From Candidatus Uhrbacteria bacterium (lineage in GTDB: Bacteria; Patescibacteriota; Patescibacteriia; 2-12-FULL-60-25): a stretch of DNA of 28,697 nt. Each line of letters opens with the position of its first letter. Position 1 is the stretch's first letter. Positions 22,261 through 22,840 of this stretch are shown here, in pieces. The notes under the pieces are model-generated. The model did not search any database and was not told where the DNA came from. It was given only the letters and a program-made list of their open reading frames with translations. The DNA lies in contig VGLT01000001.1 of NCBI GenBank assembly GCA_016866635.1, positions 1 through 28,697 of the forward strand, given 5' to 3'. The position numbers were made by a program, and so were the translations under genes.

Positions 22261-22840
22261 CGTGAGCTCGGCATGGGCTCGCAAGCTCTTTTCCCTCTCG
22301 TGCGTGAGAGGATTGATCGCTCTTTTTTCTTCGTAGTCAGCCAAGTGCTGGCGAACTCGCGTTATTTAGCGAGTCAACGTATTGGCATTCCGAATTCGGA
22401 GTGAACACCTGGTTAGCTAAGACCGTCAGTGGTCTAGTCGGAGTAAGTCGCACCTTTCATCGTCAATAGATCCGCTCGACTGCCGATCTGCTTGCAGATG
22501 GGCGTCGTTGGATTCATCAACTCGACCCCGTCCCGCTTTAGTGGGACAAAGAAACTCAAAATAAAACCCAAATTTCTTGGTCACCGCCATGATGTACAGG
22601 CGTGATACTTGTCCGCCTTTACGGTGGATAGACCAGGGTTGGGTCGATGAGCGATTCCTTCTTTAGCGAGGCACATGTGTGTCCCGCCTTGTCACTTCAT
22701 CATTTCCTAGATTGAGCCCCCATTCATTTGGGCGCGGCTCTCTAGACGTGTGACGAGGACGGACCTGTGCCTGTCGCTTTCTAGCGCCACCACAGCCACG
22801 TCTTCATCTTTTTGAAGCATTGTCGCCGGTGGCGCTTTTC
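22261..22840 (+). ncRNA. Putative large (~580 nt) highly structured non-coding RNA of unrecognised class
   Basis: No ORF of 60 aa or more in the track; about 15-20 stems; G-U pairs consistently on the + strand; own promoter; 3' 9-bp stem plus U-run. Confidence 0.7.

Follow-up and report, generated by a model that had tools for sequence, protein, structure and literature searches.

What is encoded in the long gap upstream of the dksA-like gene on this uhrbacterial contig? The window, by which we mean the whole stretch of 28,697 nt analysed here, belongs to a Candidatus Uhrbacteria genome of 834 kb in 126 contigs, ~94% complete, and is its contig C1. Between the gene of a 400-aa protein and a gene of the DksA/TraR type, the window has a 746-bp gap (22195-22940) poor in open reading frames (ORFs), the longest of which does not exceed 53 aa. 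The G+C content of the gap is 0.51-0.52 vs. 0.33-0.44 in the flanks. An earlier note, made from the sequence alone, had described this gap as free of ORFs and had placed in it a large structured non-coding RNA (ncRNA) of unrecognised class. The absence of ORFs longer than 53 aa from the gap is confirmed, and the RNA is borne out by the stability of its fold, by covariation and by the lack of a match in Rfam 15. The RNA is an uncatalogued family in one class of Patescibacteria, the Parcubacteria/Uhrbacteria lineage. As for its role, we see a slightly better than even chance that the locus encodes, as a gene in its own right, a highly structured ncRNA that acts in trans as an RNA-protein scaffold or regulator and whose synthesis DnaA controls. 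The coordinates of the features are collected in Table 1.

The + strand of 22261-22840 folds with a minimum free energy (MFE) of -230.9 kcal/mol (z = -7.9), and none of 100 shuffled sequences was as good; the complement, representing the - strand, folds at z = -6.0. We infer that transcription starts at ~22261. The promoter in the window, with the extended -10 element recognised in the earlier note, falls below the threshold of a generic promoter scan and was read directly from the sequence. Its equivalent, one sigma70-like promoter (TTGAnn-N16-18-TAnnnT with an A-rich spacer), is found 5' of the conserved core in 40 of the 43 homologues, at variable distance. At the other end, 36 of the 43 homologues have a T-rich tail after the last hairpin, at least five of its first 8 nt being T. 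A sigma70-type promoter and a hairpin-U terminator would delimit the RNA unit, which is present once in the genome in the form seen in the window.

Plain BLAST searches in the relatives yielded just short fragments, and iterated nhmmer and covariance models were required. Most dksA loci of the relatives have an ORF-poor gap of 600-880 nt 5' of dksA. With iterated nhmmer, homology could be traced in 20 of the initial 30 loci and later in 70 of about 100 loci with enough upstream sequence, this larger set including 80 loci from public genomes, mostly of Candidatus Uhrbacteria or Patescibacteria. The homologous segments are colinear and lie on the dksA strand throughout, so the check by homology and synteny suggested in the earlier note came out in its favour. 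For searches in complete genome sets we used two covariance models, R1, built from the domain of helices P3-P6, and R2, which is R1 extended by distant members. R1 matched 34 of the 41 genomes of the family (Candidatus Uhrbacteria), in a single copy, with one genome having a weak second match. In the class, R1 matched 20 of 151 genomes, and 14 of these 20 matches were 5' of dksA on the same strand. R2 raised the count to at least 35 of 151 genomes, with 10 of the 14 new matches for which loci were returned again lying 5' of dksA on the same strand. Both class counts are lower bounds because of the stricter Infernal filters applied in large searches. In total, 24 class matches, from about 20 families, are syntenic with dksA and lie 170-460 nt upstream of it. 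As synteny was not used in the searches, it provides an independent validation of the weak matches. In the rest of the phylum, R1 gave three weak matches in ~145 genomes, none of which adjoins dksA, and we rejected them as evidence for presence of the RNA outside the class. The window itself scores 76 bits with both core models; it has the P1-P8 core architecture and the same-strand position 5' of a DksA/TraR-like gene.

The alignment of the core (A2) contains 43 distinct sequences aligned by MAFFT from sequence only, with the consensus structure derived by RNAalifold. In this consensus, 86.9% of cells are paired vs. 30-45% when the 3' partner is slid by one to three columns. Changes on both sides were observed in 56 of the 68 pairs vs. 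38.3 ± 2.5 in shuffled alignments, and the number of compensatory cells was 372 vs. 123 ± 11, a value reached in none of 500 shuffles. A G-test with average product correction (APC) over all column pairs places Watson-Crick pairs at the top of the ranking, and these pairs stack into the same helices. In the model-fitted alignment of R1, which comprises 56 distinct sequences including other families, 31 of the 33 pairs change on both sides, and the covariation score is 0.576 vs. 0.06-0.14. Absence of covariation had been named in the earlier note as a result that would speak against the RNA; what we see is strong compensatory change. Among the remaining high-scoring column pairs, we looked for pseudoknots and found none that stack into further helices.

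The conserved core has ~400 nt and corresponds to ~22424-22850 of the window, the helix coordinates there being transferred from the alignment, with the register of P1 adjusted by hand. The whole RNA has ~580 nt in the window and ~390-650 nt in the relatives. The description of all ~580 nt as one ornate fold therefore stands for the core, whereas a variable extension makes up the first ~165-180 nt; its length ranges from ~0 to 260 nt among the homologues, from which no consensus structure emerges for it. The two hairpins proposed at the very 5' end (22262-82 and 22294-22311) are present in the MFE structure of the window but have no backing from covariation. In contrast, both the MFE structure and covariation retain the hairpins 22469-22514 and 22530-47, the stems 22522-28/22641-47 and 22575-82/22631-38, the rod 22665-22778, and the 3' stem AGCGCCACC/GGTGGCGCT followed by TTT. 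The stem proposed to close the large domain (22316-22/22649-55) occurs in the MFE structure of the window but is not conserved in the homologues, in which the GCAGU 3' strand pairs with ACUGC, that is, 22651-55 with 22459-63 in the window. All four counted pairs of this helix, P1, have changed on both sides, with 90.7% of cells paired and with variants such as ACGAC/GUCGU and ACUAU/AUAGU. At position 22526-22638 of P3, 23 sequences have a CG pair and 18 a UA pair. Two-sided changes are also seen in the pairs of P7; this rod has an apical part of variable length (0 to ~80 nt), and its conserved internal loops are small. A switch of P7 between a local and a distal pairing was considered and rejected, since support is stronger for the distal rod and little covariation is seen in the local hairpin. 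In P8, eight of nine pairs have changed on both sides, with 93% of cells paired.

The strand assignment of the earlier note, made from G-U pairs and the promoter, agrees with the alignment. Across the helices, G-U cells number 263 vs. 133 A.C cells, favouring the + strand; the promoter, the terminator tail, this excess and one invariant U.G pair concur in indicating that the + strand is the one probably transcribed. Taken together, the locus has what characterises a stand-alone ncRNA gene, namely its own predicted promoter and terminator, no conserved ORF and compensatory pairing. A decayed gene or a DNA-level element with incidental structure would be consistent with the datasets that contain the sequence, which are of DNA only. 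Such an explanation leaves unaccounted the pairing maintained by compensatory change across at least 20 families, the conserved promoter and terminator, and the one copy kept in 34 of 41 streamlined genomes; no reading frame is conserved. Given the covariation, we regard the absence of a functional RNA as close to refuted.

Could the region be coding after all, or be a known RNA? Weak translated similarity between the loci is explained by nucleotide conservation alone, and no frame or phase stays open across the homologues, so we rejected a protein-coding region or small ORF, and the conserved short ORFs considered in the earlier note as a competing explanation are not found. The cmscan check against all 4227 families of Rfam 15 gave no match at the gathering score in the whole window. 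At E ≤ 10, the segment 22100-23000 had just two chance matches to long non-coding RNAs, both outside the element, and at E ≤ 0.1 no Rfam family matched any of 20 homologous loci. The families without a match include OLE, ROOL, GOLLD, raiA, HEARO, 6S, the signal recognition particle (SRP) RNA, RNase P, transfer-messenger RNA (tmRNA), group I/II introns and riboswitches. The absence of RNase P, tmRNA, SRP and intron signatures noticed by eye is confirmed by these searches, and the RNase P RNA and tmRNA of this genome are encoded elsewhere (contig C54, 107 bits, and contig C26, 111 bits, respectively, both above the cut-off), which removes them as candidates. In the literature, we found no publication or Rfam entry for this RNA and none that ties Uhrbacteria or Patescibacteria to such an RNA.

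One candidate was tempting. The conserved stretch CCAGGnnnGGGUCGAnGCAGCAGU resembles, in sequence, the segment CCAGGUCAGGUCCGGAAGGAAGCAGCC in domain IV of the Escherichia coli 4.5S RNA. An SRP RNA is missing from the genome, and the element was therefore tested as a divergent SRP RNA. We rejected this identification: by covariation, CCAGGnnnGGGUCGAnGCAGCAGU makes up the 3' strands of P5, P3 and P1, so that unlike in the SRP RNA the bases form long-range helices and not a hairpin. Domain IV of a true SRP RNA is a hairpin that has a conserved tetraloop and internal loops and is bound by the M domain of Ffh. The SRP model RF00169 had no match in the genome and 30 relatives, and RF01854 had none in the genome. 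The M domain of Ffh (PF02978) is absent from the genome and the same relatives, and the SRP54-type GTPase domain (PF00448) is absent from the genome, so FtsY is missing as well. A 2015 paper (PMC4508563) already described the SRP as lost in Parcubacteria, and the genome and its relatives agree with this.

The junction domain suggests another possibility, that of a ribozyme or small-ligand RNA of a new class. In all 56 distinct sequences, P3 contains an invariant C-G pair (22521-22643) and an adjacent invariant U.G pair (22522-22642); the pairs neighbouring them covary freely. Invariant pairs amid free covariation form a pattern typical of a recognition or metal-binding site, and the junction with its universal U.G wobble could be the active or binding site of such an RNA. 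Further invariant nucleotides occur in the helices and joining strands of the junction, the A-rich strand would be suited to tertiary contacts, and the RNA is retained in genomes of ~1 Mb. Yet the RNA has no likeness to known ribozyme or riboswitch models, no substrate is obvious, and the gene context points to no chemistry, so we give this explanation a small chance. As a separate observation, the conserved, apparently unpaired pyrimidine motifs CGCACCUUU and UCCUUCUUU flank P1, and many relatives add GAUYACCUC a few nucleotides upstream. These motifs loosely resemble the 3' tail of the genome's own 16S rRNA (GGAUCACCUCCUUUCUA, contig C41), which may be due to chance or may mean that the RNA binds Shine-Dalgarno-like sequences or proteins with affinity for the 16S tail.

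Is the RNA a gene of its own or the leader of dksA? As a very long 5' leader, it could control dksA-lspA-comM in cis as an attenuator, by conditional read-through of its terminator P8. It would explain why the RNA is on the same strand immediately 5' of dksA in most genomes and why it ends in a terminator-like hairpin, and the 5' strand of P7 has a possible alternative pairing. However, dksA has a predicted promoter of its own in 40 of the 43 loci; in the window, it is the separate promoter noticed earlier at 22855-83. The distance from this promoter to the dksA start is 38-64 nt in 39 of 40 loci and 86 nt in the window. By contrast, anything between 41 and 823 nt separates the RNA terminator from dksA; in several genomes whole genes are inserted between the two, with the RNA intact, and in three genomes (G009, G019 and G023) the RNA is 2-3.5 kb away from dksA. 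No conserved anti-terminator is seen among the remaining covarying column pairs. Hence neither mark of a riboswitch or leader of dksA is found, that is, the lack of an intervening promoter and a fixed spatial link. The short constant distance of dksA from its own promoter, combined with the variable spacer, argues that the RNA has a gene to itself and is no leader of dksA; control of dksA in cis appears improbable.

The promoter of the RNA is accompanied by DnaA boxes. The earlier note took a DnaA-box consensus beside the -35 element as a hint of coupling to the cell cycle. Considered within the window, the single box at the promoter is not significant, as the scan of the window gave seven box matches vs. 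five expected. It gains significance because box positions are conserved across genomes, and the hint is strengthened accordingly. An RNA promoter is predicted in 40 loci of the family, and every one of these 40 has at least one box (at most one mismatch) between -150 and +35 relative to the -35 hexamer; the density of boxes is 12.0 per kb in this zone vs. 0.29 per kb in the remainder of these loci. The boxes favour two arrangements, a convergent pair near -73 (+) and -61 (-) and a further site at -17 (+); a box in + orientation at -15 to -21 is present in 16 of the 40 loci scored. The window does not have the -73/-61 pair found in most loci and has kept the -17 box alone. In other families, boxes occur in the matching upstream zone in 20 of 21 syntenic loci, with a density of 5.4 vs. 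0.37 per kb. As a side observation, an inverted pair of DnaA-box-like sequences (e.g., AUCCAC-N3-5-GUGGAUAA) lies inside the 5' extension in several relatives (loci L092, L096, L100, L103, L104, L064 and L033/L088); it is 3' of the predicted promoter and would form an RNA hairpin as well.

The RNA-dksA locus is 10-42 kb from dnaA in four near-complete genomes (G008, G011, G022 and G048), and perfect DnaA boxes are concentrated in the dnaA-proximal part of the chromosome that holds it. In G008 and G011 the order is the same: dnaA, then a box cluster ~12 kb off, then the RNA ~30 kb further. This location, along with the conservation of promoter boxes throughout the class, could mean that the box cluster is primary, as a DnaA titration site or an auxiliary origin, and that the RNA serves replication by transcriptional activation or by forming an R-loop. 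The locus is nevertheless not the densest box cluster: G011 has six boxes beside dnaA and five more 11 kb away vs. three at the RNA promoter, and G008 has another cluster of four boxes 30 kb away. We rejected the RNA locus as oriC because of such larger or equal clusters beside dnaA and elsewhere, and the boxes resemble a regulatory site instead. Moreover, the boxes are 5' of the promoter, outside the transcript; an RNA ending at a terminator, with 400 nt of covarying structure, would be superfluous for such a purpose; and an AT-rich unwinding element is lacking in this G+C-rich locus. We therefore find a primarily replicative element very unlikely.

Two to five boxes of the TTATCCACA type thus occupy fixed places beside a sigma70-type promoter, in a part of the chromosome close to the origin. 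In this respect the locus resembles DnaA-regulated promoters and DnaA-box clusters such as the dnaA promoter and the clusters of Bacillus subtilis. The difference is that the product here is a large structured RNA, with control by DnaA predicted from motifs. To our knowledge, the DnaA-controlled units described so far encode proteins.

Which RNAs does it resemble? OLE (RF01071), ROOL, GOLLD and the raiA motif RNA are likewise several hundred nucleotides long, have covarying helices around multi-stem junctions, their own promoter and terminator, a restriction to a single bacterial lineage and a conserved neighbourhood, and do not reveal their function by sequence. The comparison with OLE, ROOL and GOLLD made in the earlier note thus holds for size and complexity, whereas nothing supports a mechanistic similarity. 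The present RNA differs from these classes in matching no Rfam model, in coming from a different phylum (Patescibacteria), and in its dksA-lspA neighbourhood, which has none of the genes found beside them. We know of no description of DnaA boxes at the promoters of OLE, ROOL, GOLLD or raiA RNAs.

The neighbourhood brings 6S RNA (RF00013) to mind, also a stand-alone regulatory RNA, of the abundant type, and one that would suit a neighbour acting on RNA polymerase. DksA/TraR-type proteins bind in the secondary channel of RNA polymerase. An analogue of 6S RNA could bind the polymerase, e.g., via P7, and together with the DksA-like factor reset transcription in slow growth. The conserved position beside the DksA/TraR-type gene, the long rod with internal loops, and the fact that no RF00013 RNA was detected in the genome are in line with this proposal. 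On the other hand, the 6S model has no match in the window and 20 homologues, the most conserved part of the RNA is the branched P1-P6 junction domain and not the rod, and its length is two to three times that of 6S RNA. The rod of 6S RNA has ~180 nt and a conserved large central bubble mimicking an open promoter; P7 has small conserved internal loops, an apex varying from 0 to ~80 nt, and no such conserved bubble. We consider a 6S analogue unlikely, yet it is the most plausible of the alternatives, followed in this order by the ribozyme or ligand-binding RNA, the attenuator in cis and the replication-linked element.

We favour the independent gene for a DnaA-controlled RNA acting in trans. 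According to this reading, DnaA would bind the promoter-proximal boxes and set the level of the RNA, so that its abundance would follow how far the cell is in replication or its initiation. Rather than being a switch for dksA, the RNA would work in trans within an RNA-protein complex, which it would scaffold or regulate in the way of the OLE, raiA-motif and 6S RNAs. At the level of sequence comparison, the existence of the family, its conserved core and predicted transcription signals, the retention of a single copy, the synteny with dksA, and the class-wide association with DnaA boxes are established.

Several points weigh against the reading. The scaffold or regulator role is an argument by analogy; binding of DnaA is predicted from motifs, and the window has one imperfect box. 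The near-constant place beside dksA leaves some room for a link in cis or within an operon via read-through of the terminator. P7 taken alone is near-balanced between G-U and A.C cells (44 vs. 38). The compared genomes are related, and the shuffle statistics overstate their independence; the E-values of the covariance models are rough as the calibration was shortened. Finally, the searches for sequencing runs containing the sequence listed lake-water DNA metagenomes and no RNA run; the ends, the strand and the expression of the RNA are predicted.

Table 1. Features of the RNA locus and its surroundings in the window.
Feature	Position	Strand	Description
Upstream neighbour, 400-aa protein	20992-22194	+	N-terminal membrane anchor; no Pfam family
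DnaA-box-like 9-mer TTATTCACA	22209-22217	+	One mismatch to TTATCCACA; starts 17 nt 5' of -35
Predicted RNA promoter	22226-22254	+	-35 TTGATC (22226-31), 17-nt A-rich spacer, TG (22246-47), -10 TAAGAT (22249-54)
Predicted structured ncRNA transcript, ~580 nt	22261-22840	+	Ends set by promoter and terminator; colinear nhmmer homology
5' extension, lineage-specific	22261-22440	+	Hairpins 22262-82, 22294-22311, 22355-74, 22386-22403 and 22420-35 in MFE structure
Apparently unpaired motif CGCACCUUU	22449-22457	+	Just 5' of P1; G, C and UU invariant in 43 sequences; unpaired in RNAalifold consensus
P1	22459-63 with 22651-55	+	Consensus ACUGC/GCAGU; closes the conserved multi-helix domain
P2, hairpin with variable tip	22473-22510	+	13 pairs, 10 changed on both sides, 84% of cells paired; contains top covariation pairs
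P3, long-range, 15 bp	22514-28 with 22636-50	+	13 of 15 pairs changed on both sides, ~90% of cells paired
P4, hairpin variable in sequence and length	22530-22547	+	In MFE structure; two-sided change in all 5 pairs; 71% of cells paired
A-rich single strand, consensus AGAAAnCAAAAAACAAAAnnAAA	22548-22577	+	Several A (near-)invariant in 41-43 sequences; unpaired in consensus
P5	22578-82 with 22631-35	+	Consensus GGCA/UGCC; encloses P6; 93-96% of cells paired; CG/UA and AU/GC exchanges
P6, hairpin	22584-88 with 22623-27	+	With inner stem-loop, often UUCG-ended; all P6 and inner pairs changed on both sides
Pyrimidine linker UCCUUCUUU	22656-22664	+	Between P1 and P7; conserved columns, unpaired in consensus
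P7, rod	22665-22778	+	Four conserved helical segments, variable apical part; 14 counted pairs, 85-89% of cells paired
P8, terminator hairpin, then UUU	22783-22839	+	AGCGCCACC (22783-91) with GGUGGCGCU (22828-36)
Predicted dksA promoter	22855-22883	+	TTGATT-N17-TACACT; promoter-like element before dksA start in 40 of 43 loci
DksA/TraR-type zinc-finger gene	22941-23315	+	PF01258; conserved downstream neighbour of the RNA
lspA	23317-23796	+	PF01252; directly after dksA
comM	23804-25402	+	PF01078; after lspA

On the other side of the RNA, an iterated hidden Markov model recognised homologues of the upstream protein among ORFs 5' of the RNA, in 42 of 53 that were scored, almost exclusively from family loci. 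The protein is fast-evolving, has ~370-400 aa and a conserved C-terminal ...GKLxFCFE motif, and is kept at this position throughout the family. Upstream ORFs of similar size at the same position in other families do not belong to any Pfam family either. We considered the protein as a partner of the RNA and set it aside, as it is probably mostly extracellular, judging by the arginines that precede its single N-terminal anchor.

Elsewhere in the window, three DnaA-box-like 9-mers occur in 44 bp (7916-24, 7940-48 and 7951-59, the last being a perfect TTATCCACA) at the 3' end of a ComEC-like ORF, followed by an ORF-free gap of 530 bp (7972-8503). The gap folds moderately (z = -3.0) and has no Rfam match. 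The region 7916-8503 may represent another non-coding unit under the control of DnaA, or a cluster of DnaA boxes.

Bacteria have very few known classes of large RNA with an intricate fold, and RNase P, OLE, ROOL and GOLLD have each opened lines of research. The present RNA comes from ultra-small bacteria of the Candidate Phyla Radiation (CPR), a huge and almost uncultured share of bacterial diversity, and its retention in a single copy in genomes of ~1 Mb across many CPR families argues for an important job. Its covarying core of ~400 nt is a good target for cryo-electron microscopy and for benchmarks of RNA structure prediction. The DksA-like neighbour suggests a link to the control of RNA polymerase, and the class-wide link to DnaA boxes means that synthesis of the RNA may be tied to replication initiation, which offers a concrete and testable entry point. 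A bolder possibility, which we hold only tentatively and as fairly unlikely, is that of a class-wide housekeeping RNA under direct control of DnaA, coupling replication to another core process. If so, this process could be, e.g., transcription together with DksA, translation, or envelope biogenesis, and the RNA might replace machinery that these bacteria have lost; it would then be a new functional class of RNA and the first RNA in a DnaA regulon.

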